DNA from: Burkholderiales bacterium | Lineage (GTDB): Bacteria; Pseudomonadota; Gammaproteobacteria; Burkholderiales; SG8-39 | Reading direction: 5' to 3' | Assembly (NCBI GenBank): GCA_040902335.1 | Contig: JBBDXL010000179.1 | Coordinates: 4,775 to 68,774, forward strand | DNA: 64,000 nucleotides | In this document: positions 5,503 through 33,763 of the stretch, one piece after another | Layout: every line of letters starts with the position of its first letter | How positions within the stretch are numbered: the first letter of the stretch is position 1 | The notes under the pieces: generated by a model | The model's input: only the letters and a program-made list of their open reading frames with translations | What the model was told of the DNA's origin: nothing | Database searches by the model: none | Made by a program: the position numbers and the translations under genes

Positions 5503-7779
5503 ATGGCAGCAGCGCAGAAAACCACAGCAGCGCCCCTTCCCGCGAAGCTCGGCAACCTGCTGCGCGAGGCCCGCTGGCTGGTGCTGGCGGGGCTCGCCGG
5601 CTACCTGCTGCTCATCTTCCTGACGTTCGACCGCGCCGACCCGGGCTGGTCGCACAGCGCCGGCGGCACGGCGGCGCATAACGCCGGCGGGCGCGCCGGC
5701 GCCTGGCTCGCCGACCTGCTGCTGTACCTGTTCGGGGTCTCCGCGTACTGGTGGGTGGCGCTGTGCCTGGTGGGCGTGGCCTGGGGCTACCGCGCGCTCG
5801 GGCGCTCGACGCTCGTCGACCGGCGCCCGCTCGCCATCGCGCTGGGCGGCTTCGCCCTGCTGCTGCTCGCCAGCGCCGCGCTCGAGGCGCTGCGCCTGCA
5901 CTCGCTCAGCGCCCAGTTGCCGCTCGCGCCCGGGGGGCTCCTCGGCGACGCCATCGGCGGCGCCGCCGCGAGCGTGCTCGGCTTCACCGGCGCCACGCTG
6001 GTGCTGCTCACCCTCGTGGCGGTGGGCTTCAGCCTGTTCACCGGCGTGTCGTGGCTGGCGGTGGCGGAGCTCGCCGGCGCGCTGCTCGAGCGCGCCGCCG
6101 ATTTCGCGCGGCACGCCTGGGACAGCCGCGCCGACCGGAAGATCGGCAGCATCGCGCGCGAAGAGCGCGAGCTGATGCTCGAGGCCGACCGCAAGCGCGA
6201 GGAGGAGCACCCGCCCCTGGTGATCGCCGCGCCGCCGCCGGAGATCCGCAAATCCGAGCGCGTGCACAAGGAAAAGCAGGCGCCGCTGTTCGAGTCCCTG
6301 CCCGACACGCCGCTGCCGCCGGTGAAGCTGCTCGACGACGGCGGGCACGACGGCGAGCCGCTCAGCGCGGAGTCGCTGGAATTCACCTCGCGCCTGATCG
6401 AGAAGAAGCTCTCCGACTTCGGCGTCTCGGCGAAGGTGCTGGCCGCCTATCCCGGCCCGGTGATCACGCGCTACGAGATCGAGCCCGCCGTCGGCGTGAA
6501 AGGCAGCCAGATCGTCAACCTGGTGAAGGACCTGGCGCGCGCCCTGTCGGTGGTGTCGATCCGCGTGGTCGAGACCATCCCCGGCAAGTCGTGCATGGGC
6601 CTCGAGATCCCGAATCCGCACCGCCAGACCGTGCGCCTGTCGGAGATCCTCGGCTCCGAGGTGTACGCGGACATGCACTCGCCGCTCGCGCTCGCGCTCG
6701 GCAAGGACATCGCCGGCAACCCGGTGGTCGTCGACCTGCAGAAAATGCCGCACCTGCTGGTCGCGGGCACCACCGGCTCGGGCAAGTCGGTGGCCTTGAA
6801 CGCCATGATCCTGTCGTTGCTGTACAAGGCCGAGCCCAAGCAGGTGCGCCTGATCCTCGTCGACCCGAAGATGCTCGAGCTCTCGGTGTACCAGGATATT
6901 CCGCATCTGCTTGCGCCCGTGGTCACCGACATGAAGCAGGCGGCGAACGCGCTCATGTGGTGCGTGGCGGAGATGGAGCGGCGCTACAAGCTCATGTCCT
7001 GGGTGGGCGTGCGCAACCTCTCCGGCTTCAACCACAAGGTGGCCGACGCGCAAAGAGCCGGGCAGCCGCTCGAAGACCCGGCGACGCTCGATTCGGGCGC
7101 GCCGCAGGCGCTCACGCAGCTGCCCTACATCGTCGTCGTCATCGACGAGCTCGCCGACCTGATGATGGTGGTGGGCAAGAAGGTCGAGGAGCTGGTGGCG
7201 CGCCTCGCGCAGAAGGCGCGCGCCTCGGGCATCCATCTCATCGTCGCCACGCAGCGCCCGTCGGTGGACGTGATCACCGGCCTGATCAAGGCCAATATCC
7301 CGACGCGCATCGCTTTCCAGGTGGCGAGCCGCGTCGATTCGCGCACCATCCTCGACCACCAGGGCGCGGAGGCGCTGCTCGGCGCGGGCGACATGCTCTA
7401 CCTGCCGGCGGGCACCGGCCTCGCGCAGCGCGTGCACGGCGCGTTCGTCGGCGATCACGAGGTGCACAAGGTGGTGGACCACCTCAAGTCGCTCGCCTCG
7501 CCCGAGTACCTCGAGCACGTGCTCGATCCCGGCGCCGGCGAGAGCGGCGCCTTCGACGGCGCGAACGGCGAGGGCAGCGAGAAGGACGCGCTCTACGACC
7601 AGGCGGTGGAGATCGTGCTGCGCACGCGCCGGCCGTCGATCTCGCTCGTGCAGCGCCACCTGCGCATCGGCTACAACCGCGCCGCGCGCCTGATCGAGGA
7701 CATGGAGCGCGCGGGGCTGGTGTCGGCGATGCAGTCCAACGGCAACCGCGAGGTGCTGGTGCCCGCGAAGGCGGAGTAG
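5503..7779 (+). CDS. ftsK: DNA translocase FtsK
   Basis: 758 aa. N-terminal TM segments, Walker A GTTGSGKS, ...IDELADLMM..., and a C-terminal gamma wHTH ([24 protein letters not shown]). Confidence 0.95.
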
Positions 7780-10963: not shown

Positions 10964-11053
10964 GGAGAGATGGCAGAGTGGTCGATTGCGGCAGACTCGA
11001 AATCTGTTGTACGCGTAAGCGTACCGGGGGTTCGAATCCCTCTCTCTCCGCCA
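10964..11053 (+). tRNA. tRNA-Ser (anticodon CGA), type II with long variable arm, CCA encoded
   Basis: GGAGAGATGGCAGAGTGGTCGATTGCGGCAGACTCGAAATCTGTTGTACGCGTAAGCGTACCGGGGGTTCGAATCCCTCTCTCTCCGCCA. Acceptor stem GGAGAGA/TCTCTCC, anticodon loop CT-CGA-AA, T-loop TTCGAAT. Confidence 0.9.
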
Positions 11054-16465: not shown

Positions 16466-17408
16466 CGGTGACCGGCCGGCCGTCCAGGACTTCGCGGCAG
16501 CGCTCGAGCGTCTCCGCTTCCAGGCGCGCCATCGCCTCGTAGCTGTAGAAGCCGAGGTGCGGCGAGAGGATCACGTTGTCCATGGCGTAGAGCGGGCTCA
16601 GGGGATGCCCGGAGCGCGCGAGCGGCTCGCTCGAGAAGACATCGAGCGCTGCGCCCGCGATGCGCCTTTCCTGCAACGCGCGCAGCAGCGCCATCTCGTC
16701 CACGATCGCTCCCCGCGACACATTGACCAGGAACGCCGTCGGCTTCATGCAGCACAGCGCCCCCTCTCCGATCAGATGCCGCGTCTCGGGCGTGAGCACG
16801 CAGTGCACTGAGACGAAATCGCACTCCGCGATCATGGTCCGGAGGTCTGTTCGCAGATCGGCGTGCGCGCTCTGCGACACATGCGGGTCGCAGGCAAGCA
16901 CGCGCATCCGGAAGGCCGCGGCCATGCGCGCGAAGCTTGAGCCGATCCGCCCCAGCCCGACGAGACCGACCGTCTTGCCCGCGAGATCGCTCGCCAGCCA
17001 TTCTCGCGCCGGCCAGATCCAGCCTTCGCGGTCCATCGCGCGCTGGATCGGCTTCAGCTTTTTCGCGAGCGCGATGAGCAGCGCAAAGGCGCCTTCGGCG
17101 ACGGTTTCCTCGGCGTACTCGGGCACGTTGACCACCGGGATGCCGCGGCTGCGCGCGGCCGCGATGTCGATCGCGTCAATGCCGACGCCGTACTTGACGA
17201 TGCCCTTGAGCCTCGCCGCGGCCTCGATGGCGCGACGCGTGACCGGCGTGTAGCACATAAGCAGCAATTCGGCTTCGCGCAATTCGCGCAGCAGCTCGTC
17301 TTCGCTGACGCCGCCAGGCAGAAGCACGAGCTCGTGGCCAGCCGCGCGCAGCGCCGAGTCGACGCGCGGCACCTCGAGCTCGCGGTCGGTGCGAACTATC
17401 CTTGCCAC
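16407..17408 (-). CDS. D-isomer-specific 2-hydroxyacid dehydrogenase family protein
   Basis: 333 aa with [16 protein letters not shown] motif and a C-terminal ...NVILSPHLG catalytic His region. Confidence 0.9.
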
Positions 17409-19714
17409 GGTGCCTTGAGCGCGGCCTTCGCCGCCACCACGCGGCCCGAGACCTCGATCTCGTAGCGGCCGGCAAGAACGCCTTGCGCGGTCTCGGGCTT
17501 CGCCGAGTAAACGAATCCCATCGCCACCATGGTGCCGAGCGAGGCGCTGTAGCCCACCGAGGTCAGCTCGCCCACCGGCTTGTCGTCGCGCAGGATCGGC
17601 TCTCCGCCCCAGGCGAACAGTTCCGTCGCGGGGAAGGTGAACATCAGCAGCCGCTTCGCCAGCCCCGGCTTCGGGGGTTCGCGCTTGTCGCGCCTTACCG
17701 CAAACTCAAGCCCGGCCTCGTAAGGCGTGCAGTCCGGGGACAGCTCGGCGCCGAAGGCGCGCCGGCCGGCCTCGATGCGCAGTGCGTCGAGCGCGTAGTA
17801 GCCGCAATCCTTCAACCCGAGGTCGCTGCCGGCATCCCACAACCGGTCGTAGAGGCTCGCCGCATCCTCCACCGGCACATAGAGCTCCCAGCCCGGTCCG
17901 CCGGCATAGGATGCGGGCACGGCTCGCGCCTCGTCTTTCAATGTCAGTCTTGAAAGCAGAGTGCCGGCGTTCGGCCCGAGCACCGAGATCACCGACCAGG
18001 CGTCGCTCACGTCTTCGACGGTGACGTTTTCGTTGCTCCTTATTTGACGGCGAATCCACGCCGCATCGCGCACCGGCTGCGCCGAGCCCGTGACTATGAA
18101 GAACGCATCGTCGCCCCAGCGCTGCACGGTGACGTCGCTCTCGTAGCCGCCCTTGCGGTTGAGCATCGGTGTATAGGTAAGGCTGCCAATGCGGTTCGCG
18201 CAGACCCGCTCGAGCAGGGTCTGCGCGTCCCGCCCGCGCACGAGAAGCTTGCCGAACGAAGTCTGGTCGAACACGCCCGCCGCCCCGCGCACCGCGCGCT
18301 GCTCGGCAATGCAGGCGTCGAGCCAGTTCGGCCGGCCGAGGGTGTATTGAAGTTTTTCGCCAGTAACGGAAAACCAGTTGGCGCGTTCCCAGCCGAACTT
18401 TGATCCGAACAAGGCGCCTTTCGCCTTCAAGCGCCCGTAGAGCGGCGAGACGCGCAGCGGCCGGCCCGATTCCAGCTCGTGGCGCGGCCAGCGCATCGCG
18501 TAATGCAGGCCGAGCGTCTCCACGGTACGCTCCTTGAGCCATTTCGAATCCGCGGCGAACGCGCCGAAGCGCCGGATATCCACCTCGAACAGGTCCATCG
18601 GTGCCTCGCCGCCCGCGATCCACTCGGCAAGCAGCTTCCCCGCGCCGCCGGCGTTGGCGATCCCCGCGGAGTTGAAGCCGGCGGCGACGAAGTAGCTCCT
18701 GAGCTCCGGTGCCTCGCCCAGGATGAAGTTGCCGTCGGGGGTGAAGCTCTCCGGGCCGTTGAGCAGCAGCTTCACGCCCGCGGTCTCGAGCGCAGGCACG
18801 CGATGCATCGCCGCCTCCATCAACGGCTGGAACTGCTCCCAGTCCTCGGGCAGCAGCTGGAACTCGAACTTCTCCGGTATGCCGCCCATCCCCCAGGGCT
18901 TGGCCACCGGCTCGAAGCCGCCCATGACGAGACCGCCGACCTCCTCCTTGAAATAGATGAAGCCGTCGGGATCGCGCATCACCGGCAGCATCGGATGCAC
19001 GCCCGCGATCGGCCCGGTGACGAGGTAGAAGTGCTCGGCCGAGTGCAGCGGGATGTTGACGCCGCTTTGCGCGCCGAGCGCCCGCGCCCATTGCCCGGCG
19101 CAATTGACCAGTACCGAACATTGAACGTCACCCGCCGTGGTCGCTACACCCGTTAGGGCATTGTTATGCAAACGAACGCCCGTCACGCGCACGCCTTCGT
19201 GGATCTTCACGCCCAGATTGCGCGCCCCCTTGGCGAGGCTTTGCGCCAGGTCCGCCGGGTTTGCCTTGCCGTCGGCGGGAAACCAGAGCGCGCCCTGCAG
19301 GTCGTCGATGCGCAGCAGTGGCCATTTCTCCAGCGCTTCGCGCGGCGTGAGCAGCTCGACCTCGATGCCGAAGCTGCGCGCCATCGCCGCCTGGCGCCGG
19401 AACACGATCCAGCGCTCGGGCGTTCGCGCGACATTCACGCTGCCGCAGCGCTTCCATCCGGTGGCGAGGCCGGTTTCCTGCTCCAACGTCGCGTAAAGCT
19501 GCGTGCCGTACTGGCTCATGCGCGTCATCGAGCGGTTCGGCCGCATCTGGCCGACCAGCCCCGCCGCGTGCCAGGTGGTGCCGCAGGTGAGGCGGCCCTG
19601 GTCGAGGAGGACGATGTCGCGCTTGCCGAGCTTCGCCAGGTGGTAGGCGACGCTTATGCCGACGATGCCGCCGCCGATGACGACGATTGCGGCATGCGAA
19701 GGGAGCCCGGTCAT
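17396..19714 (-). CDS. Dimethylglycine/sarcosine-dehydrogenase-like fusion: FAD-dependent oxidoreductase (DAO) domain plus GcvT-type folate-binding aminomethyltransferase domain
   Basis: From ATG 19714: [31 protein letters not shown]...[12 protein letters not shown] (FAD dinucleotide fold), then ...[13 protein letters not shown]...[10 protein letters not shown]...[11 protein letters not shown] (GcvT-like). The part of track ORF 17396..20113 upstream of 19714 is junk. ATGA overlap with the EamA stop. Confidence 0.88.
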
Positions 19715-20568
19715 GCCTTGAGCGCGATCACGCCGGCCGCGACCGCGAGCGCACCGGCGATGCGGCGTGCGCCGAAGGGTTCCTTCAGCAGCCAGGCGCC
19801 GAGCAGCGCCGCGAAGATCACCGAGGTTTCGCGCAGCGCGGCAATCGCGGCGATCGGCGCGCGCGTCATCGCCCACAGGGCGATGCCGTAGGCCACCACC
19901 GAGCCGGCGCCACCCACGAGACCGCGCACCCAGTAGCGGCCCGCGTAATGCAAAAGCTCGCCGCGGCGCCCCCAGGCGACCATCAGCACGTAGGGAAAGC
20001 CGTCGAGAAAAAAGATCCACAGCGCGTAGCTCTCCGCACGACCCGAGAGCCTGACGCCGGCGCCGTCCACGAGGGTATAGGTAGCGATGATGACGGCATT
20101 CGCGAGCGCCCAAGCGGTCGCGCGGCGGTTATGCAGCCACGAGCCACCGCCGGCGAAGCTGATGCCGATGACGCCGGCGCTGATGAGCATGATCCCCGCC
20201 CACATCCACGCACCCGGGATCTCGCCCAGCATCAGCACCCCGAAACCGGCCACCAGAAGCGGGGCGATGCCGCGCATCAGAGGATAGCCGTGCGAGAGAT
20301 CTCCGGCGCGGTAGGTCGCCACCAGCGCGACGAAATAGCCGATATGGATCGCCACCGACGCCGCGAGGTAGGGCCAGCTCTCCGGCGCCGGGAGCGGAAC
20401 GAAAAGCAGAAACGGGACTGCAACCAGGGCGCCGCCGCCCACCACGCCGGCGAGGTCGAGCGCCGGGTCGCTGCTGCCCTTGATCATCGCGTTCCACGCT
20501 GCGTGGAGCAGCGCGGCGCCGAGCACGGCGAGCGTGACCGGAGCCGACAGCCCGGCCGCTTCGCTCAT
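19711..20568 (-). CDS. EamA/DMT-family transporter
   Basis: 285 aa, about 10 hydrophobic segments, two EamA repeats. Confidence 0.85.
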
Positions 20569-21875
20569 GCAGCGATCGCGGCCTCGACGATGTCGAGCGC
20601 GCGGTCGAGCTCTTCTTCCCGGATGATGAGCGGGGGCGCGAGCACCAGCACGCGACCCTGCCCGACCTTGAACGAGAGCCCCTGCGAGAGGCAGCGGTAC
20701 ATGACCTCCTCGGCCAGCGCCGCGTCGTTCAGCTCGATCCCGAGCAGCAGGCCGATGCCGCGCACGTCGGCGACTGCAGGATGCCTCATCTCCCGTAACC
20801 GGGCGAGGGCTCGTTCACCGAGGCGCGTTGCGCGTGCAAGCAGATCCTCGGATTCGACGACCTCGAGCGCGGCAAGTGCCGCGGCGCAGCCGACCGGGCT
20901 CTTCTCGTGCGTGTAGTGGCCGAGCGCGCGCTCGCCCGCGATATCGAGGCCGGCGCGCGCGACGAGCGCCGCCATCGGAAACACGCCCCCGCCGAGGCCT
21001 TTCCCCAGCACCACCATGTCGGGAACGATGCCGTAGCGCTCGAAAGCGAACATCGTTCCGGTACGGCCAAGGCCCACCGCGATCTCGTCGAGGACGAGAA
21101 GCGCGCCGTGACGGTCGCAGGCCGCGCGCAGCTTCTCGTAGTAATCGGGCGGCGGCACCTGCACGTCGGTCGAGCGCACCGTTTCCACCACCACCGCCGC
21201 GACGTCCTCCTCCTTGCCGAGCACGTACTCGACGTAGTCGGCGCAGCGCGCGTTGCAGGCGCCGTTGCAGCCGAAATGGCAGTTGCGCGGATCGCAGGGC
21301 TGCACGTGCTCGGTGCCGGACAGGAGCGGCCCGATGTCGCGGCGAAACAGAGCTTCACCGCCGAGCGAGATCGCGTCCAGGGAGGCGCCGTGGAACGAGT
21401 CCCACATCGAAAGCGTCTTGTGCCGGCCGGTGGCGAGGCGCGCGAGCTTGAGCGCCATGCCGATCGCCTCGGTGCCGCCGGGCGCGAATAGGACCTTCCC
21501 CAGATCGCCGGGCGCAAGGCGTGCGAGCCTGCGCGCAAGGGCGACGGCGGTCTCGTTGGTGTAGCGGCGCGGCGAGAAGGGAAGCGTATCGAGCGCGCGC
21601 TTCACCGCTTCGATCACGCGCGGATGGCCGTGGCCGACCTGGTGCACGCTGTTGCCGTGGAAATCCATCACCCGGCGGCCTTCCAGGTCCTCGAGCCAGA
21701 TTCCCGAGGCCGACTTGAGCGCGCTCAGGCAGGGCGTGGACAGCGACTGGTGCAGGAAATAGCGCGCGTCCTCGGCGAGCAGCGCCCGGGTGGCGGGACC
21801 GAGCTTGTCCGCTTGCCATTGTCCGCGCCGCGGCGAAAGATTGACGTCGCCCTCCGCGGACCGGTCCCTAGGCAT
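20565..21875 (-). CDS. Class-III (omega) PLP aminotransferase-fold enzyme; position suggests a PbfA-type enzyme
   Basis: 436 aa: ...DFHGNSVHQVGHGHPRV..., DEIAVGLGRTGTMFAFE.., GKGLGGG.FPMAA. It sits between phnX and the exporter in the AEP locus. The PbfA assignment is inference from context only. Confidence 0.85.
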   Translation of the reverse strand: MPRDRSAEGDVNLSPRRGQWQADKLGPATRALLAEDARYFLHQSLSTPCLSALKSASGIWLEDLEGRRVMDFHGNSVHQVGHGHPRVIEAVKRALDTLPFSPRRYTNETAVALARRLARLAPGDLGKVLFAPGGTEAIGMALKLARLATGRHKTLSMWDSFHGASLDAISLGGEALFRRDIGPLLSGTEHVQPCDPRNCHFGCNGACNARCADYVEYVLGKEEDVAAVVVETVRSTDVQVPPPDYYEKLRAACDRHGALLVLDEIAVGLGRTGTMFAFERYGIVPDMVVLGKGLGGGVFPMAALVARAGLDIAGERALGHYTHEKSPVGCAAALAALEVVESEDLLARATRLGERALARLREMRHPAVADVRGIGLLLGIELNDAALAEEVMYRCLSQGLSFKVGQGRVLVLAPPLIIREEELDRALDIVEAAIAA

Positions 21876-22242
21876 GCTTTTGGTTGGCCGTGCCGTTGAC
21901 GAATTCCTCGCGCAGGCGCGTCGGCGCGAGCGCCCCCGCCTGCTCGAGGATCGGGTAGGCGACCGAGCAGATGTGCGAGTTGATGCGCTTGAAGTCGTTG
22001 ATGATGTCGAGGTGAAGGGAGCTCGTCTCGATCGACTGCACCGTCTGCCAGGCGAGGCGGTTCAGGTGCGCGTCGCCGTACTGGCGCTCGAGGTTGCGGA
22101 ACTCGACCTTGGTCCCGAGCAGCATCTGCGCGCTCTTCAGGTCGCCGTTGAGGAATACGTTCAGCCCCAGGCGCAGGTTTGCGACCAGGCGCCCCCAAAC
22201 GAGCAGCGCGATTCCCGAGAGGATGCTGACCAGCGTGTGCAT
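21868..22242 (-). pseudogene. Na/Pi-cotransporter (YjbB/NptA-like) C-terminal PhoU-like fragment, 124 aa
   Basis: ..SIETSSLHLDIINDFKRINSHICSVAYPILE.. is the characteristic C-terminal region of ~550-aa Na/Pi cotransporter family proteins. The whole membrane domain is absent. It may still be translated as a stand-alone PhoU-like protein. Confidence 0.55.
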
Positions 22243-22261
22243 CAGGTTCTTGCCTTTGGCG

Positions 22262-23092
22262 TCAGGCCGCTTCCCCGCGTCGGATGCGCGCCTGAATGTC
22301 GTCGATGCAGGGCATGATATCCGCGATGGTATCCACTACATAGTGTGCACCGCATTGCCCCATGCGTGTGCGGGCGCGCTCGCGCTTCACCCGCTGCTCG
22401 GCTTCCGCTAACGCCTGCCACTGCTTGAGCGTCAATCCCACCTCGTTGCCGCTGACCGCGAGCCCGATGGTCCACATTCCGGCGTTCAGGCCCTCCTCGA
22501 CGCCGGGAACGGTGTCGTCGATCTTGACGCAGGCCTGCACCGTGCTCACGCGGAGATTGATCACGTTCTGCAGGCACATATAGGGATAGGGGCGCCCGGC
22601 GGGCACGTCGGCCGCGCAGACCGTGGCGTCCGGCTGGTAGCCCTGGCGCTTCGCGTCTGCGAGATTGATCTTCATCATTTCGGTGAGATAGCCGGTGGTC
22701 GAGCCGATCTTGATGCCGCGCGCGCGCAGCTCCGCGACCGCCTCCAGCGTGCCCGGAATGAGGGCCGAATAGTTGGACAGGCACTCGAGCTGCAGCGGCA
22801 CGAAATCGGCGAACATCGCGCTCACGTCGTCGTCGTCAGGTGTCCGCCCGTGCGCCTCCTGCCAGCGCCGGCGCACCGAGTCGAGCTCGGTGATGCGCTG
22901 GATGTGCACGCGCTTGTGCGCTCCCATGGGCGCGCGCGCCTCCTCGATGGTGATCGGCACCTGCTTGCGCCGGAATACCTCCACGAACACCACTGCCGGC
23001 GCCATGCAGCCGAAGTCCATGGTGGTTCCGGCCCAGTCGAGCAGCACCGCCTCGATCGGCCCGCGGTAGCTGCGCTTATAGCTGAAGTTCAT
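22262..23092 (-). CDS. phnX: Phosphonoacetaldehyde hydrolase (phosphonatase)
   Basis: 276 aa. AVLLDWAGTTMDFGCMAP is the HAD motif I with the phosphonatase-type context. Strong SD GGGGAGGG. Confidence 0.92.
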   Translation of the reverse strand: MNFSYKRSYRGPIEAVLLDWAGTTMDFGCMAPAVVFVEVFRRKQVPITIEEARAPMGAHKRVHIQRITELDSVRRRWQEAHGRTPDDDDVSAMFADFVPLQLECLSNYSALIPGTLEAVAELRARGIKIGSTTGYLTEMMKINLADAKRQGYQPDATVCAADVPAGRPYPYMCLQNVINLRVSTVQACVKIDDTVPGVEEGLNAGMWTIGLAVSGNEVGLTLKQWQALAEAEQRVKRERARTRMGQCGAHYVVDTIADIMPCIDDIQARIRRGEAA

Positions 23093-27063: not shown

Positions 27064-28203
27064 ATGAAACAACCCATCCTGCTCACCCCCGGCCCGCTCA
27101 CCACCTCGAGCGCGACCAAGCTCGCCATGATGCGCGACTGGGGCTCGCGCGATTCGGGCTTCATCGAGCTCAACCGTCTGGTCCGCGACATGCTGTTGGA
27201 TGTCGTTCATGGAAAGGAAATTCACGTCTGCGTGCCGCTCCAGGGCAGCGGCACCTTCGCCGTCGAGGCGGCGCTCGGCACGCTGGTGCCGCGCGAGGGC
27301 CATGTGCTGGTGCCGCTCAACGGCGCCTACTGCAGGCGCATCGCGCGCATCTGCGCCATCCTCGGCCGGCGCACCACTACTCTCGATTTTCAGGAGGATG
27401 AACCTGTGAAAGCCGCGGACATCGACGCCATCCTGTCCCGCGACCCCTCGATCACGCACGTTGCCCTGGTGCACTGCGAGACCAGCACCGGGGTTCTCAA
27501 TCCTCTAGAAGAGATCGCCGAAAGTGTCGCCCGCCACAAACGCAGCTTGATCGTCGACGCCATGAGCTCGTTCGCGGCGCTCGAGATCGACGCGCGCAAG
27601 ACCCCGTTCGACGCGCTGGTGGCGGCCTCCGGCAAATGCCTCGAAGGCCCGCCGGGAATGGGCTTCGCGCTTGCCCGCCGCGCGGCGCTCGAGAAATGCG
27701 CCGGAAATTCGCCCTCGCTGGTGCTCGACCTCCACGACCAGTGGGTCAACATGGAGAAGACCGCGCAGTGGCGCTTTACGCCGCCGACCGTGGTGCTCGC
27801 CGCGCTGCACGCCGCGCTCGAGCAGTTCGTCGCCGAAGGCGGCCAGCCCGCGCGCCTCGCGCGCTACCGCAGGAACTGCGAGGTGCTGATCGAGGGCATG
27901 ACGCGTCTCGGCTTCAAGCCGTTCCTCGAGCCGCGCCACCAGGCGCCGGTCATCGTGACGTTCCACGCCCCCGCCGATCCGAGCTACGATTTCCAGCGCT
28001 TCTACGACCGCGTGCGCGAGAAGGGCTTCGTGCTCTACCCCGGAAAGCTCACCCAGGTCGACACGCTGCGCGTGGGCTGCATCGGCGCGATCGACGAGAA
28101 CGTCCTGCGCGCCGCGGTGCACGCGATCGCCGACACGCTCGCCGAGCAGGGCATCCGGCTCCATGAATCTGGTTCTGTTCGATCTCGACAATACGCTCCT
28201 TAG
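27064..28203 (+). CDS. phnW: 2-aminoethylphosphonate--pyruvate transaminase
   Basis: From ATG 27064: [15 protein letters not shown]... class-V aminotransferase with the characteristic PhnW N-terminus (..MRDWGSRD..) and ..[13 protein letters not shown] (PLP Lys). Confidence 0.92.
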
Positions 28204-28819
28204 CGGCGACACCGATTTCGAGTGGCTCGCTTTCCTTGTCGAGCAAGGGGTTCTTTCCAGTTCCGACCAGGAAGCAAATGCCGAAATGGATCACCGCTAC
28301 CGCAGCGGCGACGCCGGCGCGCTCGAGTATGTACGCTTCTACCTGGGCTTCTATGCGCCCCACGGCATGGCTGCGCTCCTCGCCTGGCGCGACAAGTTCT
28401 TCCGCACCAGAATCGAGCGGCGAATTTCGCGCGCGGCGCGAGCGCTGGTGGAGTCGCATCGCAACGACCTCGTCGCGATCGTCACCGCGACCAACCGCTT
28501 CCTCACCGAGCCGATCGCCGCGGCGTTCGGCGTCGAGCACCTCATCGCCACCGAGCCCGAGATGGTCGCGGGCCGGTTCACGGGCGAGGTCGCCGGGACG
28601 CCGTGCATGCGCGAGGGCAAGATCGAGCGGCTCGAAGCGTGGCTTGCCTCCCGCGGCAGCTCGCTCGCCGATTACGCCGAGACCTGGTTCTACAGCGATT
28701 CGATCAACGACCTGCCGCTGCTCGAGCGCGTGACGCACCCGGTGGCCGTGGATGCCGACTCAAAGCTCGAGCGGCTCGCGCGCGAGCGGGGGTGGACGAT
28801 ATTGCACCTGCCCCGCTGA
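28163..28819 (+). CDS. HAD-IB family hydrolase/phosphatase (SerB-like)
   Basis: 218 aa with motif [10 protein letters not shown] and C-terminal ..[11 protein letters not shown]. 41-nt overlap with phnW. Confidence 0.85.
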
Positions 28820-29115
28820 CGGCCGGGGGGCGCTGCCGAGCCAAGTGCTCGACGATTTCGAGGAACGCGCTGACGAGCCGCGCGAGTGGCCGCAAAACGC
28901 GGTCCTTCCCCTCATGTACCATCCCATCGCCGACATCGCGCCCTACATTGGCGGCGTGCCGGCGGGCAATCGAGCCCTTTGACGTAAGGAGCATTGCGAT
29001 CGGGCTGCGCTTCGCCTCGGCCTGGAATTCAGCCCTTCGCTTCTTGACGCTTTCTGGAACCCGGAGCGAGACAGCCATGGTCTCGCGTTTGTATCACAAT
29101 TGAGATAGATCGATT

Positions 29116-30483
29116 ATGAGTGAAACGGAAGCTGGGCCGAGGGGAATGCTTCAGCCCGAGCAGCTGCGTACGCTGGTCGGGAAAGGCGAGATCGAAACCG
29201 TCGTCGTCGGCTTCACCGACCACTACGGCCGCCTGCTGGGCAAGCGCTTCGACGCCGAGTTTTTCGTCGAGGAGATCTGCAGCCAGGGGGCGCACGCCTG
29301 CGACTATCTGCTGACGGTCGACATGGAGATGGATCCGGTGCCGGGGTATCGCTTCGCCAACTGGGAGCTCGGCTACGGCGACTTTCATCTGGTGCCCGAC
29401 CTGGGCACGCTGCGCCTCGCGAGCTGGCTCGACAAAAGCGCGCTGGTGCTCTGCGACGTGAAAAGTGAAAAGATGCACGAGTATGTGGCCGTGGCGCCGC
29501 GCTCGATCCTGCGCCGGCAAATCGACGCCGCAAGCGCGCGGGGATACACAGCCTTCGCCGCCTCCGAGCTCGAGCACTACCTCTTCCGCACGAGCTACCG
29601 CGAGGCGGCCCAGCGCGACTACCGTGACCTCGAGCCCGCGGGCTGGTACCTGGAGGACTATCATATCCTGCAGGGCACGCGCACCGAAAGCTTCCACGCC
29701 GCGGCGCGCCGCCACCTGAAGCTCTCGGGCGTGCCGGTCGAGAACTCGAAAGGAGAATGGGGCGCGGGGCAGCACGAGCTGAACGTGCGCTATGCCAGCG
29801 TCCTGGAAATGGCCGACCGCCACGTGGTGTTCAAGCAATGCCTCAAGGAGCTCGCGGAGGCGGCAGGCATGAGCCTCACCTTCATGGCCAAGTTCGCCTC
29901 CGACCGGGCAGGCTCGAGCTGCCACATCCACTTCAGCCTCCGGCGCGATGGGAAGAACGTCTTTGAGAAAGGCGGCGACCTTTTCCGCTGGTTCCTCGCG
30001 GGCTGGATGGCACACGTGCCCGACGTCATGGTGTTCTACGCGCCGACCGTCAATTCGTACAAGCGCTACGTGGACGCCTCCTGGGCGCCGACGCGGCTCG
30101 CCTGGAGCTACGACAACCGCACGGCGGGCTTCCGCGTCGTGGGCGACGGCCCGGGCCTGCGCATCGAATGCCGCATTCCCGGCGCCGACTGCAATCCCTA
30201 CCTCGCTTTCTCCGCCGCGCTCGCCTCGGGCCTTGACGGCATCGCCGGCCGGCTCGAGCCGCCCGCATGCTTCGTCGGCGACGTCTACGCGGCGAAAAGC
30301 CTGCCGCGGGTGCCGCATACGCTCAGCGAAGCAGCAGATCTTTTTTCAAACAGTGATTTTACGAAGCGCGCGTTCGGCGCGGAGGTGGTGGAGCACTACA
30401 CGCATTTCTTTCGCACCGAAGCAGCCGCCTTCGACAAGGCGGTCACCGATTGGGAGCGCAAGCGCTACTTCGAAAGAATATGA
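29116..30483 (+). CDS. Glutamine-synthetase-family enzyme, gamma-glutamyl-amine synthetase type (PuuA/GlnA3/GlnA4-like)
   Basis: 455 aa: ..EWGAGQHELNVRY.. and ..NSYKRY..WAPT...WSYDNRTAGFRV.. GS catalytic motifs. No AT-adenylylation context. Confidence 0.88.
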   Translation: MSETEAGPRGMLQPEQLRTLVGKGEIETVVVGFTDHYGRLLGKRFDAEFFVEEICSQGAHACDYLLTVDMEMDPVPGYRFANWELGYGDFHLVPDLGTLRLASWLDKSALVLCDVKSEKMHEYVAVAPRSILRRQIDAASARGYTAFAASELEHYLFRTSYREAAQRDYRDLEPAGWYLEDYHILQGTRTESFHAAARRHLKLSGVPVENSKGEWGAGQHELNVRYASVLEMADRHVVFKQCLKELAEAAGMSLTFMAKFASDRAGSSCHIHFSLRRDGKNVFEKGGDLFRWFLAGWMAHVPDVMVFYAPTVNSYKRYVDASWAPTRLAWSYDNRTAGFRVVGDGPGLRIECRIPGADCNPYLAFSAALASGLDGIAGRLEPPACFVGDVYAAKSLPRVPHTLSEAADLFSNSDFTKRAFGAEVVEHYTHFFRTEAAAFDKAVTDWERKRYFERI

Positions 30484-31253
30484 GACTCGAACACAAGGTT
30501 GCCCTGATCACCGGCGCCGGCAGCGGCATCGGCCGGCAGACCGCACTGCTTTTTGCCAAGGAAGGCGCGGCGGTGCTCGCGGTCGACGTGAACGAGCAGG
30601 CCGCCGCCGAAACCGTCGTGCTGATCAGGCAGGCGGGCGGCCGCGCCGTCGCCTGCCACGCCGACGTGTCGAAAGCGCGCGACTGCCAGCAGATGGTCGC
30701 CGCGGTCGAGAAGGAGTTCGGCCGGCTCGACGTGCTGTTCAACAACGCCGGCATCATGCACGCCACGGACGACGACGCCGTCTCCACCGACGAGAGCGTC
30801 TGGGACCTGACGCTCGACATCAACGCCAAGGGCGTCTTCCTCGGCTGCAAGTACGGCATCCCGGCGCTGCGCCGCGCAGGCGGCGGCTCGGTCATCAACA
30901 CCGCTTCGTTCGTGGCGCGGCTCGGCGCCGCCACGCCGCAAATCGCCTACACCGCGAGCAAGGGCGCCGTGCTCGCGATGACCCGCGAGCTCGCGGTCGT
31001 CCACGCCCGCCAGGGCATCCGCGTCAACGCGCTCTGCCCGGGGCCGCTGCGCACCGAGCTTCTCATGAGCTACCTCGACACCGAAGAGAAGCGCCAGCGG
31101 CGCCTGGTGCACGTGCCGATGGGGCGCTTCGGCGAGGCGCAGGAAATCGCCTACGCCGCCCTCTACCTCGCCTCCGACGAATCCTCCTTCGTCACCGGCA
31201 CCGAGTTCCTGGTCGACGGCGGCCTCACCGCGGCCTACGTCACGCCGGAATGA
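30480..31253 (+). CDS. SDR-family dehydrogenase
   Basis: From ATG 30480 (ATGA overlap with the GS-like stop): MRLEHKVALITGAGSGIGR..., NNAG, YTASKGAV catalytic YxxxK. Confidence 0.9.
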   Translation: MRLEHKVALITGAGSGIGRQTALLFAKEGAAVLAVDVNEQAAAETVVLIRQAGGRAVACHADVSKARDCQQMVAAVEKEFGRLDVLFNNAGIMHATDDDAVSTDESVWDLTLDINAKGVFLGCKYGIPALRRAGGGSVINTASFVARLGAATPQIAYTASKGAVLAMTRELAVVHARQGIRVNALCPGPLRTELLMSYLDTEEKRQRRLVHVPMGRFGEAQEIAYAALYLASDESSFVTGTEFLVDGGLTAAYVTPE

Positions 31254-31518
31254 GATATCTCGAAGACTTTGCGGTGGGTCAGACCTTCGGCTCCGGCCGG
31301 CTGCGCGTCGACAAACAGCGGGTCATGGCCTTCGCCGCCGAATTCGCCCCGGCGACGAGTTGCACCTCGACATCGAAGTGATGGAGGTGCGGCCGTCGAA
31401 GTCGCGCCCGGAGCAGGGCTTGATCAAGGTCAAGACCACGACGCTCAATCAGGACGGCGAGGCGGTACAGGTCACCATCGGGAATCTGGTCGTGCCATGC
31501 CGCCCGGTGAAAGAATGA
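31250..31518 (+). pseudogene. MaoC-like (R)-hydratase/dehydratase gene with internal deletion and frameshift
   Basis: The N-terminal MRYLEDFAVGQTFGSGRLRVDKQRVMAFAAEF.. runs into a stop at 31381. The C-terminal ..GDELHLDIEVMEVRPSKSRPEQGLIKVKTTTLNQDGEAVQVTIGNLVVPCRPVKE* continues in another frame. The central hot-dog core (I estimate ~70 aa) is missing. ATGA overlaps are kept at both ends. Confidence 0.7.
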
Positions 31519-32882
31519 TCAGCCCGGTCGACGGCTCGGTTTATGTACAGCGCGAGCCGCCCTCCGACGCGGCGATCGAAGCTGCGCTCGCCAAAGCGGC
31601 AGATTCTCAACAAATTTGGAAACGAGTGCCGGTCGCCGAGCGCGCCGCGATCTGCTGCCGCATGGCCGACTGGTGCGTCGAGCGGGCCGACGAGCTTGGC
31701 AGAGAACTGACCTGGCAGATCGGCCGGCCGATCGCGCACAGCCCCCTGGAGCTGCGCCGCGGTTTCCATGAGCGCGCTCAGCACATGTGCGCCATCGCCG
31801 AAGAGGCGTTGGGAGATCTGAATTCAGAGCCCAAACCCGGATTTCGCCGCTTCATCCGCCGCGAGCCGCTCGGCGTGGTGCTGGTGCTCGCGCCCTGGAA
31901 TTACCCCTGGCTCACTTCAGTCAATGCGGTGGTGCCCGCGCTGCTAGCCGGCAACACGGTGCTCCTGAAGATGGCGGCGCAGACACCCCTTGTCGCCGAG
32001 CGCTACCGCCAGGCTTTCGACGCCGCCGGGCTGCCGGAAGGCGCATTCCAGTTCCTGCATCTCGATCACGCTCAGGTGGCGCGCGTCATCGCAGACTCCC
32101 GCATCGGCTTTGTTGCCTTTACCGGCTCGGTCGGCGGCGGGCATGCCGTGCAGCGCGCCGCGGCCGGGCGCTTCATCGCCACCGGGCTCGAGCTCGGCGG
32201 CAAGGATCCCGCCTACGTCCGGGCCGACGCGCCGCTCGAGGCGACCGTCGAAAACCTGGTCGATGGCGCCTACTTCAACTCAGGGCAGTCCTGTTGTGCG
32301 GTGGAACGCATTTACGTCCACAAGAATGTTCTTAAGAACTTCGTGGAAGGCTTCGTCGAGCTCACCAGGCAGTACCGGCTCGGCAATCCGCTCGATCCGC
32401 AAACCACGCTCGGGCCGCTGGTGCGCAAGGAAGCCGCCGACAACGTGCGCGCGCAGATCCGCGACGCGCTGGACAAAGGGGCCAGGGCGCTTCTCGACAC
32501 GAGAGGCGATAAAGCGGGCACCCCGTATCTTCCCCCGCAGGTGCTGGTCGATGTCCATCACGGCATGGCGGTGATGGCCGATGAGACCTTCGGGCCGGTG
32601 GTCGGTATCCAGCGCGTCGAGAACGACGAGGAAGCGATCGCGCTCATGAACGACAGCCGCTACGGGTTGACGGCCTCGATCTGGACCTGCAACGTCGAGG
32701 CCGCCATCCGGATCGGCGATCGCGTCGAGACCGGCACCTGGTTCATGAATCGCTGCGACTACCTCGATCCTGCGCTCGCCTGGACCGGAGTCAAAGACTC
32801 GGGGCGCGGCTGCACGCTTTCCCGGCTGGGGCTCGAAACTTTCACCCGACCGAAGTCGTTTCACCTGCGGCTGAGCCTGTGA
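31515..32882 (+). CDS. NAD(P)-dependent aldehyde dehydrogenase
   Basis: From ATG 31515: MISPVDGSVYVQ... with ..LELGGKDPAYV.. and ..FNSGQSCCAVERIYV.. (catalytic Glu and Cys motifs). Confidence 0.9.
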   Translation: MISPVDGSVYVQREPPSDAAIEAALAKAADSQQIWKRVPVAERAAICCRMADWCVERADELGRELTWQIGRPIAHSPLELRRGFHERAQHMCAIAEEALGDLNSEPKPGFRRFIRREPLGVVLVLAPWNYPWLTSVNAVVPALLAGNTVLLKMAAQTPLVAERYRQAFDAAGLPEGAFQFLHLDHAQVARVIADSRIGFVAFTGSVGGGHAVQRAAAGRFIATGLELGGKDPAYVRADAPLEATVENLVDGAYFNSGQSCCAVERIYVHKNVLKNFVEGFVELTRQYRLGNPLDPQTTLGPLVRKEAADNVRAQIRDALDKGARALLDTRGDKAGTPYLPPQVLVDVHHGMAVMADETFGPVVGIQRVENDEEAIALMNDSRYGLTASIWTCNVEAAIRIGDRVETGTWFMNRCDYLDPALAWTGVKDSGRGCTLSRLGLETFTRPKSFHLRLSL

Positions 32883-32903
32883 TAGATTGCCTGCGCCCTA
32901 ACG

Positions 32904-33045
32904 CCTCGCGTGGGAGAGACCGACTCCGGCCGGCGCCGAAGGGGTAACGCGCCCCGCAAAACTCTCAGGCAATAGGACCGCGCGAGGCTGGGCACTCTGG
33001 AGAGAAGGCCCGAGCGGCCTCGCCGAAGGCTACAAGCTGAAAAAA
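32904..33045 (+). promoter_or_regulatory. Glycine riboswitch: one complete aptamer (32904..32987) followed by a partial second aptamer (about 32991..33045)
   Basis: Aptamer 1 has P1 CCTCGCG/CGCGAGG, GGGAGAG, GCGCCGAAGGGG-TAACGCG-CCCC, and AAACTCTCAGGCAATAGGAC. The second unit has CACTCTGGAGAG, hairpin AGGCC-CGAG-CGGCCT and CGCCGAAGG but lacks the 3' CTCAGGCA..GGAC half. The ATG of the downstream gene is at 33053. Confidence 0.78.
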
Positions 33046-33052
33046 CCGGGCT

Positions 33053-33763
33053 ATGCACATCGGCCTGCTTGAATGCGATAACGTCGCCGGACGCTTTTCC
33101 CATATCGAGGGCGGCTATCGCGAGATGTTCGCCGCGCTGCTGCCCGGCGCGCGATTCAGCTATTACGAGGCGTGGAAGAACGAGCTGCCCGCGAGCGCGG
33201 ACGCCTGCGGCGCATGGGTGTGCAGCGGATCGCAGTATTCGGTCTACGACAAGATGGAATGGGTCGGCGCCCTGTCGCGGCTCGTGCAGACGTTGCATGA
33301 AGAAAAGCGACCCTACGTCGGCATCTGCTTCGGCCACCAGATGCTGGCGCAGGCGCTGGGCGGCGAGGTGGCGCGCGCCGCGCGGGGATGGGGAGTGGGC
33401 GTCCACGACGTGCAGGTCCTGCGGCAGGAACCGTGGATGCAGCCGCCCCAATCACATTTCCGCATCCATCACATGCACGCGGATCAGGTGCAGCGGCTGC
33501 CGCCGGACAGCGTGGTGCTTGGAAGCAGCGCCCACTGCGAGGTGGCGATGTTCCGCGTCGGCGACTCGATGCTCGGCATCGAAGGGCATCCGGAATTCAC
33601 CGCGGCATTCAGCGAGGCGCTGATCCGGGCCCGCGCCGACCGTATCGGCGTCGAGCGCGTGCAGGCCGGGCTCGCCAGCCTTGGCCAGCCAACGGACGGC
33701 GCCGTTGTCGGGCGATGGATCGCGCAGTTCCTGGAACGGAAGGATGCGGGATCGTCGGTCTGA
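33053..33763 (+). CDS. Class-I glutamine amidotransferase-like protein (GATase1; gamma-glutamyl hydrolase candidate)
   Basis: 236 aa: ..PYVGICFGHQMLAQALGG.. (nucleophile Cys elbow) and ..GIEGHPEF.. (His/Glu). Confidence 0.85.
   Translation: MHIGLLECDNVAGRFSHIEGGYREMFAALLPGARFSYYEAWKNELPASADACGAWVCSGSQYSVYDKMEWVGALSRLVQTLHEEKRPYVGICFGHQMLAQALGGEVARAARGWGVGVHDVQVLRQEPWMQPPQSHFRIHHMHADQVQRLPPDSVVLGSSAHCEVAMFRVGDSMLGIEGHPEFTAAFSEALIRARADRIGVERVQAGLASLGQPTDGAVVGRWIAQFLERKDAGSSV

Follow-up and report, generated by a model that had tools for sequence, protein, structure and literature searches.

The window analysed here is a stretch of 64,000 nucleotides from a Burkholderiales bacterium (GCA_040902335.1, contig JBBDXL010000179.1), in which positions 29146-33763 hold an operon encoding a glutamine synthetase-like (GS-like) ligase, a short-chain dehydrogenase/reductase (SDR), an aldehyde dehydrogenase (ALDH), and a hydrolase of the class-I glutamine amidotransferase fold (GATase1) that resembles gamma-glutamyl peptidase 1 (GGP1) of Arabidopsis. 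Between about 27 and 34 kb, the order of features on the + strand is phnW, a HAD-IB phosphatase gene, a spacer, the GS-like gene, the SDR gene, a fragment of a MaoC-dehydratase gene, the ALDH gene, a spacer of 170 nt containing a glycine riboswitch aptamer, and the GATase1 gene (Table 1). All elements named in the original prediction were recovered on this strand, and where it had placed them, by Pfam, NCBIfam, and Rfam searches. The translational coupling by ATGA overlaps that it had described for several genes is present between the GS-like and SDR genes, where the SDR start overlaps the GS stop, and at both ends of the MaoC remnant; it does not extend to the HAD gene, which is separated from the GS-like gene by a spacer of 296-326 nt.

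The reading frame of the GS-like protein opens at 29116, and both its homologues and the gene call point to M11 (position 29146) as the likely start. The protein scores below the cut-offs for true glutamine synthetases (225 versus 429 bits for GS type I, 217 versus 470 bits for GS type III) and far below that for PuuA (191.7 versus 650 bits). Its best relatives of solved structure are PDB 11zs (461 bits) and 5DM3 (380 bits, around 48% identity over 442 residues), the latter being listed in the Foldseek library as the 'glutamine synthetase' Csal_0679 of Chromohalobacter salexigens. Only this entry description was used and structural scores were ignored, the AlphaFold2 model of the ligase having been built from a shallow alignment (predicted local distance difference test score, pLDDT, of 38). 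By homology, the protein is a ligase related to Csal_0679 and GlnA4 and not a true glutamine synthetase.

The ALDH likewise reaches no NCBIfam equivalog cut-off (PuuC, 223 versus 850 bits), its best models being succinate-semialdehyde and aminobutyraldehyde dehydrogenases, all of them under cut-off. Between the SDR and ALDH genes, the MaoC gene had been described as wrecked, and comparison with the intact 151-aa gene of relatives bears this out, as about 181 internal bases are gone and the frame is shifted. An intact MaoC gene (149-151 aa) occupies the same position in three related loci (L167, L168, and L173), and the gene is cleanly absent from three contigs of the same species (L081, L082, and L084). 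The species thus carries two alleles at this site, the pseudogene of the window and a clean deletion, in contigs whose proteins are 99-100% identical; in the deleted allele (L081, positions 6440-6480), SDR and ALDH overlap by 4 nt and the SDR is one residue longer.

The GATase1 protein is best read as a putative stand-alone gamma-glutamyl-amide hydrolase, and not as an amidotransferase subunit, because its catalytic triad is intact and its match to GGP1 is full length. Residues Cys92, His179, and Glu181 are invariant in an alignment of 20 homologues. The best sequence match in the PDB is GGP1 (E = 7e-20), and the AlphaFold2 model (pLDDT 93.8) gave as its top Foldseek match the GGP1 entry 9k7i (template modelling score 0.91, root-mean-square deviation 2.1 Å over 242 columns, full length). 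GGP1 (PDB 9k7i-9k7l) is a stand-alone enzyme that cleaves a gamma-glutamyl amide bond, as predicted here for GATase1; in contrast, it comes from a plant, where its substrates are glutathione conjugates on the way to glucosinolates and camalexin, it is only 24% identical, and no operon context is held in common. The match to Peptidase_C26 (PF07722) is marginal (21.7 bits versus a cut-off of 20.5). The best NCBIfam model is PRK05665, a family that includes PauD2 of Pseudomonas aeruginosa. In a search for cultured carriers among plasmids, the best match to GATase1 was below 40% identity.

The conservation of the cassette was assessed in 80 genome loci and 80 metagenome loci, fetched via an alignment of GATase1 homologues and probed by tblastn with the window proteins; the scored homologues numbered more than 1,000 for GATase1 and about 8,000 for the GS-like protein, and figures of relatedness come from pairwise comparisons. 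At least 25 loci outside the species have GS, SDR, ALDH, and GATase1 in synteny, in Betaproteobacteria (Burkholderiales), many Acidimicrobiia (Actinomycetota), and metagenome-assembled genomes (MAGs) of Rhodospirillaceae and Gemmatimonadaceae. Wherever the GATase1 was at least about 45% identical and the contig long enough, the GS (61-87% identity) and its adjoining SDR (68-90%) lay directly upstream, followed by the ALDH (61-82%) immediately before GATase1, and the genes were mostly overlapping or closely spaced. GS-SDR-ALDH-GATase1 is a real, co-conserved catabolic cassette. The larger set initially proposed recurs in part only: these four genes are found together in many lineages, the HAD gene is not among them, and the riboswitch is present in a single locus outside the species (L171, see below). 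In Burkholderiales MAGs, the cassette lies between yhbY (beside ftsJ/ftsH/lhr) and greA-carBA-dapB.

Several carriers depart from the common arrangement. In L169 (9733-16296), the cassette is split, with ALDH-GATase1 on one strand and GS-SDR on the other, the latter directly downstream of glycolate-oxidase-like glcD/glcE/glcF genes; the glcF-like and GS genes overlap by 4 nt. Insertions within the cassette include a 764-aa hydrolase of the penicillin-amidase family in L106 (1504-3798), whose role might be to free the amine substrate from an N-acyl conjugate, a 2-oxoglutarate (2OG)-Fe(II) oxygenase in L010 (2982-3977), and a DUF3015 protein, an Lnb_N protein, and an alpha/beta hydrolase in L170 (4301-7622); a family-III CoA-transferase precedes the ALDH in L172 (1-655). 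Four loci of Acidimicrobiia/Actinomycetota (L019, L111, L112, and L140) have GS-SDR-GATase1 with no ALDH between SDR and GATase1. Six marine gammaproteobacterial loci (L026, L037, L046, L055, L119, and L129) carry a distant cassette (GS about 30%, ALDH 53-60%, and GATase1 about 40% identical) with a gap of around 1.2 kb between ALDH and GATase1 and no SDR match, possibly a gamma-glutamyl pathway for a different amine.

The glycine aptamer predicted ahead of the GATase1 gene was recovered by Rfam (RF00504) at 65.6 bits (gathering score 32; E = 2e-11 for the whole window), far beyond chance. It is intercistronic, beginning 18 nt after the ALDH stop codon. No second glycine aptamer was matched by Rfam at E <= 10 in 32700-33300, and the aptamer is followed by the 5' half of one, made up of the P1 5' strand CUCUGGAGAG, the P2 hairpin, and CGCCGAAGG, and cut after J2/3. 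Judged from its sequence, this half is not a functional aptamer by itself. A scan found no terminator and no promoter, and the 23 nt before the GATase1 ATG read as containing no clear Shine-Dalgarno sequence. Five further contigs of the species (L081-L085), with identical GATase1, have the same 170-nt spacer. The six copies differ by three single-nucleotide polymorphisms (SNPs) at window positions 32925, 32967, and 32985, the changes being one in the P2 loop, one turning the outermost P1 pair from U-A to U-C (L084 only), and an A-to-G at 32967, the strongly conserved bulged A of CUCAGGC; one variant of the aptamer in the species scores 58.8 bits.

This element had been regarded as a possible conserved feature of the cassette, and the comparison of loci speaks against that. 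No glycine aptamer was found by Rfam in the 27 closest loci from other species, and a motif search of 171 loci located the riboswitch only in the contigs of the same species and in L171. A conserved riboswitch-GATase1 pair was accordingly rejected (regular-expression scan of L001-L080, Rfam in 27 loci, motif scan of all loci). The literature gave no usable match on a glycine riboswitch with a glutamine amidotransferase, nor on 5DM3 or on Rv2857c/Rv2858c together with glnA4.

The one other carrier, L171, is a Betaproteobacteria MAG (GCA_052388315.1) with the order GS, SDR, ALDH, a spacer of 268 nt, gcvH, gcvP, gcvT, and GATase1. A GcvP motif was found in this locus only among 177. Its spacer contains a complete tandem glycine riboswitch (64.0 + 52.9 bits by Rfam) and, between this and gcvH, an AGGAG Shine-Dalgarno sequence. 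Colinearity of the window with L171 runs from 32861 to 33029, that is, from the last ALDH codons to CGCCGAAGG of aptamer 2, and covers the leader (TAGATT...GCCCTA.CGCCT), aptamer 1, the linker (GAGGCTGGGC.CTCTGGAGAG), and the P2 hairpin of aptamer 2 (AAGGCC...GGCCT). At 33029 the homology ends, and what follows in L171, namely the 3' half of aptamer 2, the expression platform, gcvH, gcvP, and gcvT, is gone from the window. In close relatives with a plain ALDH-GATase1 junction, stop and start overlap or abut (e.g. ctgTAATGcac in L088), and the flanks in the window match this junction.

The aptamer of the window is most likely the 5' remnant of a tandem riboswitch, left as a deletion scar and not acquired as a regulator of the hydrolase. 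On this reading, a tandem glycine riboswitch with gcvH-gcvP-gcvT would once have been inserted at the ALDH/GATase1 junction, and a deletion in the lineage of the window would then have taken out the second half of aptamer 2 together with the expression platform and all gcv genes, fusing half of the riboswitch to GATase1. A deletion is suggested because the remainder of aptamer 2, the platform, and the gcv genes are missing precisely where homology with L171 stops, and the direction from tandem to truncated because a complete aptamer is not plausibly rebuilt from a half. Other traces of deletional decay at the locus are the MaoC remnant and debris in the spacer between the HAD and GS-like genes.

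A deletion origin is compatible with a second possibility, close to the original view of the element, that the surviving aptamer still regulates. The window would then contain a working singlet glycine riboswitch, with the truncated aptamer 2 as a ghost aptamer, controlling translation of the gamma-glutamylglycine hydrolase intercistronically and coupling the release of glycine to its cellular level. Tandem glycine riboswitches reportedly lie upstream of gcv glycine-cleavage operons, and singlet glycine riboswitches are reportedly stabilised by ghost-aptamer remnants, which the part of aptamer 2 kept in the window resembles. The core of the aptamer has stayed intact and still scores highly (65.6 and 58.8 bits), six contigs from different samples all have the arrangement, with only three SNPs in 170 nt, and in the minimum free energy fold the start codon is enclosed by pairing between GCCGA of the remnant and UCGGC just past the start of the coding region. 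Nevertheless, this fold is no better than that of shuffled sequence (z = -0.24 to -0.27), neither a terminator nor a recognisable Shine-Dalgarno or anti-Shine-Dalgarno sequence is present, and the expression platform of L171 is entirely missing. Moreover, four of the six contigs carry the A-to-G change at the conserved bulged A, at a cost of about 7 bits, and the arrangement is limited to one species. The comparison with known tandem and ghost-singlet riboswitches is similarly divided: aptamer 1 is full and its homologue in L171 belongs to a classic tandem before gcvH, whereas aptamer 2 of the window is cut, no expression platform is seen, and the downstream gene is GATase1 and not gcv. We therefore regard retained regulation as a tentative and rather doubtful proposal, and a still more specific version, in which a deletion of 4-5 kb within the riboswitch-gcvHPT insertion created a new working singlet, with the half-aptamer as ghost, gating translation of the gamma-glutamylglycine hydrolase, as slightly less likely again.

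The chemistry best supported for the cassette is the conversion of ethanolamine to glycine, as originally proposed, and we hold it to be probable, though with considerable reserve. The ligase would join glutamate to ethanolamine at the cost of ATP, the SDR would oxidise the alcohol of gamma-glutamylethanolamide while the amine is kept protected, the ALDH would oxidise the resulting aldehyde with the amine still protected, and GATase1 would split gamma-glutamylglycine into glutamate and glycine. A glycine sensor and a gcv operon are spliced between the ALDH and the hydrolase genes in L171, which argues that the product of the cassette is glycine, and this is strong guilt-by-association. The glcDEF-like genes running into GS-SDR in L169 point in turn to C2 metabolism, and together with the gcv insertion and the homology to Csal_0679 they make the ethanolamine-to-glycine route the best supported; the match of the hydrolase to GGP1 agrees with it.

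The route itself is already published. Gamma-glutamylation of ethanolamine is reported as demonstrated for the Csal_0678 cluster of C. salexigens and in Agrobacterium tumefaciens C58 (Vetting et al., 2015, as cited in PMC10132767), Csal_0679 adjoining the ethanolamine-binding protein Csal_0678 of a tripartite ATP-independent periplasmic (TRAP) transporter (PMC10132767). The genes reported are those of an ethanolamine gamma-glutamylase, a gamma-glutamylethanolamide dehydrogenase, a gamma-glutamylacetaldehydeamide dehydrogenase, and a gamma-glutamylglycine amidohydrolase, and a corresponding cluster is known in Phaeobacter (MED193_10026-10056; PMC10132767). GlnA4 of Streptomyces coelicolor (SCO1611-1615) has been shown to be a gamma-glutamylethanolamide synthetase, and the same route has been proposed there (PMC6529630, PMC9397018). 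The published clusters combine PF00120 with PF00465 (iron-dependent alcohol dehydrogenase), PF00171, and PF05013 (FGase, the formylglutamate amidohydrolase family) (Table 2 of PMC9397018). The reaction order predicted here from the genes is the same (gamma-glutamylation, oxidation of the alcohol and of the aldehyde, hydrolysis), the GS-like enzyme is homologous, and PF00171 is the Pfam family of the ALDH in both cases. In contrast, the alcohol dehydrogenase is replaced by an SDR (PF13561/PF00106), a functional analogue and not a homologue, FGase is replaced by the GGP1-like PF00117 hydrolase, and no TRAP (EtoVWX) or EAT transporter or regulator adjoins the genes, which in relatives lie in a housekeeping neighbourhood. 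The cassette is apparently a variant of the known pathway with two non-homologous enzyme replacements, and apparently undescribed as such.

The Puu (Escherichia coli) and Pau (P. aeruginosa) pathways for polyamines and the Ipu pathway for isopropylamine or alaninol also combine a GS-like ligase and an ALDH with a Cys-His-Glu gamma-glutamyl hydrolase. However, the window proteins miss the PuuA, PuuC, and GS equivalog cut-offs by a wide margin, an SDR stands in place of a PuuB-type oxidase or a P450, and the hydrolase is GGP1-like and not a typical PuuD-type Peptidase_C26; the PuuA, PuuB, PuuC, and PuuD set that defines a Puu or Pau pathway is not what the cassette encodes. Compared by description, the Rv2857c-Rv2860c region of Mycobacterium tuberculosis would hold the same four families, with Rv2858c as the ALDH aldC and Rv2857c as an SDR, but in a gene order unlike that of the window. 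Within it, Rv2860c is the GS-like GlnA4Mt, whose function is stated as unclear (PMC11841054), and Rv2859c encodes an amidotransferase (PMC6754383).

Alternatively, the substrate of the cassette could be another amine or amino alcohol, as in a conversion of 3-aminopropanol into beta-alanine, of alaninol into alanine, or of 4-aminobutanol or a polyamine into gamma-aminobutyric acid, the gcv and riboswitch insertion of L171 being incidental. The generic family matches of SDR and ALDH (succinate-semialdehyde and aminobutyraldehyde models, under cut-off) would fit such a substrate, as would PRK05665, with PauD2 among its members, as the best model of GATase1, the lack of an adjoining ethanolamine transporter, and accessory genes that vary by lineage (MaoC, CoA-transferase, penicillin amidase, 2OG oxygenase). 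Set against this, the GS-like protein resembles Csal_0679 (380 bits) far more than it does the PuuA model (191.7 bits, cut-off 650), the cassette has no amine oxidase gene, in L169 it is fused with glcDEF-like C2 genes, and the whole gcvHPT block with its riboswitch sits precisely between the last two genes in L171. A different substrate is on balance unlikely.

The full explanation, in which the cassette is an ethanolamine-to-glycine variant and the aptamer a deletion remnant of a gcv insertion, joins a substrate, a product, a deletion history, and a present regulatory status that we infer, and it is in our judgement only somewhat more probable than improbable. Directly shown are the identities of the genes, the conserved cassette, the homology of the riboswitch with the point where it is cut, and the insertion of gcv genes in L171. 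Several observations weigh against the explanation. L171 is not the nearest relative of the window (GS 78%, SDR 79%, ALDH 73%, GATase1 61% identical), a nearer clade bearing MaoC has no riboswitch (GS 87%, SDR 84%, ALDH 82%, GATase1 70%), and the nearest GATase1 relatives of L171 itself (72-74%) have the plain junction without it. MaoC is therefore held in common with one clade and the riboswitch with another, which calls for cassettes that recombined or for precise loss on more than one occasion. On its 3' side, the proposed deletion has no traceable end-point, as the 3' end of gcvT in L171 gave only a TACAAG...AAA resemblance to the 23-nt junction, and the near-invariance of the aptamer in six contigs (58.8-65.6 bits) is also compatible with retained function. 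With respect to the chemistry, an identity of around 48% with Csal_0679 does not determine which substrate is used, and no ethanolamine transporter or regulator adjoins the cassette in the window flanks, L081-L086, or L167-L177. A history without any deletion, in which the riboswitch alone was inserted before GATase1 in the lineage of the window and L171 independently gained gcvHPT behind a similar element, would suit the non-sister position of the two lineages and the untraceable end-point, yet it is very improbable given that leader, linker, and the P2 stem of aptamer 2 are nearly identical at the same junction in both, that aptamer 2 of the window breaks off mid-structure where L171 runs on to a complete aptamer, and that growing a complete aptamer from half of one is far less likely than truncation.

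Upstream of the cassette, the neighbours form a complete 2-aminoethylphosphonate (AEP) system comprising PhnS2T2U2, PhnW, PhnX, PbfA, and a DUF6 membrane protein; on the - strand the AEP locus spans 17396-23092, including a large FAD-oxidoreductase reading frame. The HAD gene shares its first 41 nt with the 3' end of phnW and is the tail of the phnS2T2U2-phnW operon, unrelated to the cassette. Its product is best matched by histidinol-phosphatase of the Pseudomonas type (252.7 bits, cut-off 280), an unusual partner in an AEP operon, and may be a housekeeping histidinol-phosphatase or an AEP-related phosphatase. The HAD phosphatase and the AEP locus had been tied to the cassette as a salvage island for phospholipid head groups. 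However, neither HAD nor PhnW was matched in cassette loci outside the species (tblastn, E <= 1e-20), the only cassette loci with them being the same-species contigs L081 and L084, and both were rejected as cassette members. Because these genes are not co-conserved with the cassette, the salvage idea comes down to an adjacency peculiar to this species. Relative to L081 (4212-4355) and L084 (2089-2232), the spacer between HAD and the GS-like gene (28820-29145) contains two extra segments of about 63 and 118 nt; that they are a decayed yhbY was not supported, BLASTP giving no alignment and the DNA alignment being weak. Downstream, a TIGR02466-family gene (2OG-Fe(II) oxygenase-like, PF13759; 33907-34536) begins 143 nt after GATase1 and is followed by a reading frame of 106 aa without a family match, a YqgE/AlgH (DUF179) gene, and a gene of the molybdopterin aldehyde-oxidase type. 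The genes from TIGR02466 onward are kept in same-species contigs and are not adjacent to the cassette in relatives. Elsewhere in the window, a tRNA gene with a long variable arm occupies 10964-11050 (87 nt, 57.7 bits).

Table 1. Cassette, riboswitch, and neighbouring features, in window positions.
Feature	Position	Strand	Evidence or remark
FAD-oxidoreductase reading frame with GcvT-like folate-binding C-terminal domain	17396-20113	-	dimethylglycine/sarcosine-dehydrogenase-like
DUF6 membrane protein	19711-20568	-	AEP locus
PbfA, (R)-1-hydroxy-2-AEP ammonia-lyase	20565-21875	-	AEP locus
PhnX phosphonatase	22262-23092	-	AEP locus
phnW	27064-28203	+	PRK13479, 556 bits
HAD-IB phosphatase gene	28163-28819	+	PF12710; neighbour outside the cassette
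GS-like gamma-glutamyl-amine ligase, predicted gamma-glutamylethanolamide synthetase	29146-30483	+	PF00120, 306 bits
SDR, predicted gamma-glutamylethanolamide dehydrogenase	30480-31253	+	PF13561 + PF00106
MaoC-dehydratase pseudogene	31250-31518	+	sequence reading; alignment to intact MaoC of L088
ALDH, predicted gamma-glutamyl-aminoacetaldehyde dehydrogenase	31515-32882	+	PF00171, 394 bits
Glycine riboswitch aptamer, most likely aptamer 1 of a former tandem	32901-32990	+	RF00504, 65.6 bits
5' half of a second glycine aptamer	32995-33029	+	near-identical to the first half of aptamer 2 in L171
23-nt junction before the GATase1 start	33030-33052	+	A-rich sequence
Stand-alone class-I GATase-fold hydrolase, predicted gamma-glutamylglycine hydrolase	33053-33763	+	PF00117

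The pathway type is known, and the riboswitch most likely represents what a deletion left of a gcv insertion, not a new regulatory pairing. For genome scans this is a caution, as a high-scoring aptamer before an unusual gene may be a deletion relic and not a new member of a regulon; the locus is a clean example of riboswitch decay or, possibly, rebirth. If the truncated element does work as a singlet, the origin of singlet glycine riboswitches and of new riboswitch-gene pairings would have been caught in the act, and this would be the first case of a riboswitch that responds to the final product of a gamma-glutamylation route. For the cassette, the operon of L171 is a natural 'metabolic fusion' that indicates glycine independently of assays. 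GS-SDR-ALDH-GATase1 is very common in soil Betaproteobacteria and Acidimicrobiia, where its genes are annotated merely as 'glutamine synthetase' or 'GMP synthase-like amidotransferase', and the proposed link from ethanolamine to glycine provides a testable function for this widespread cassette, a hypothesis that extends to the similar-looking composition of the glnA4 region of M. tuberculosis.

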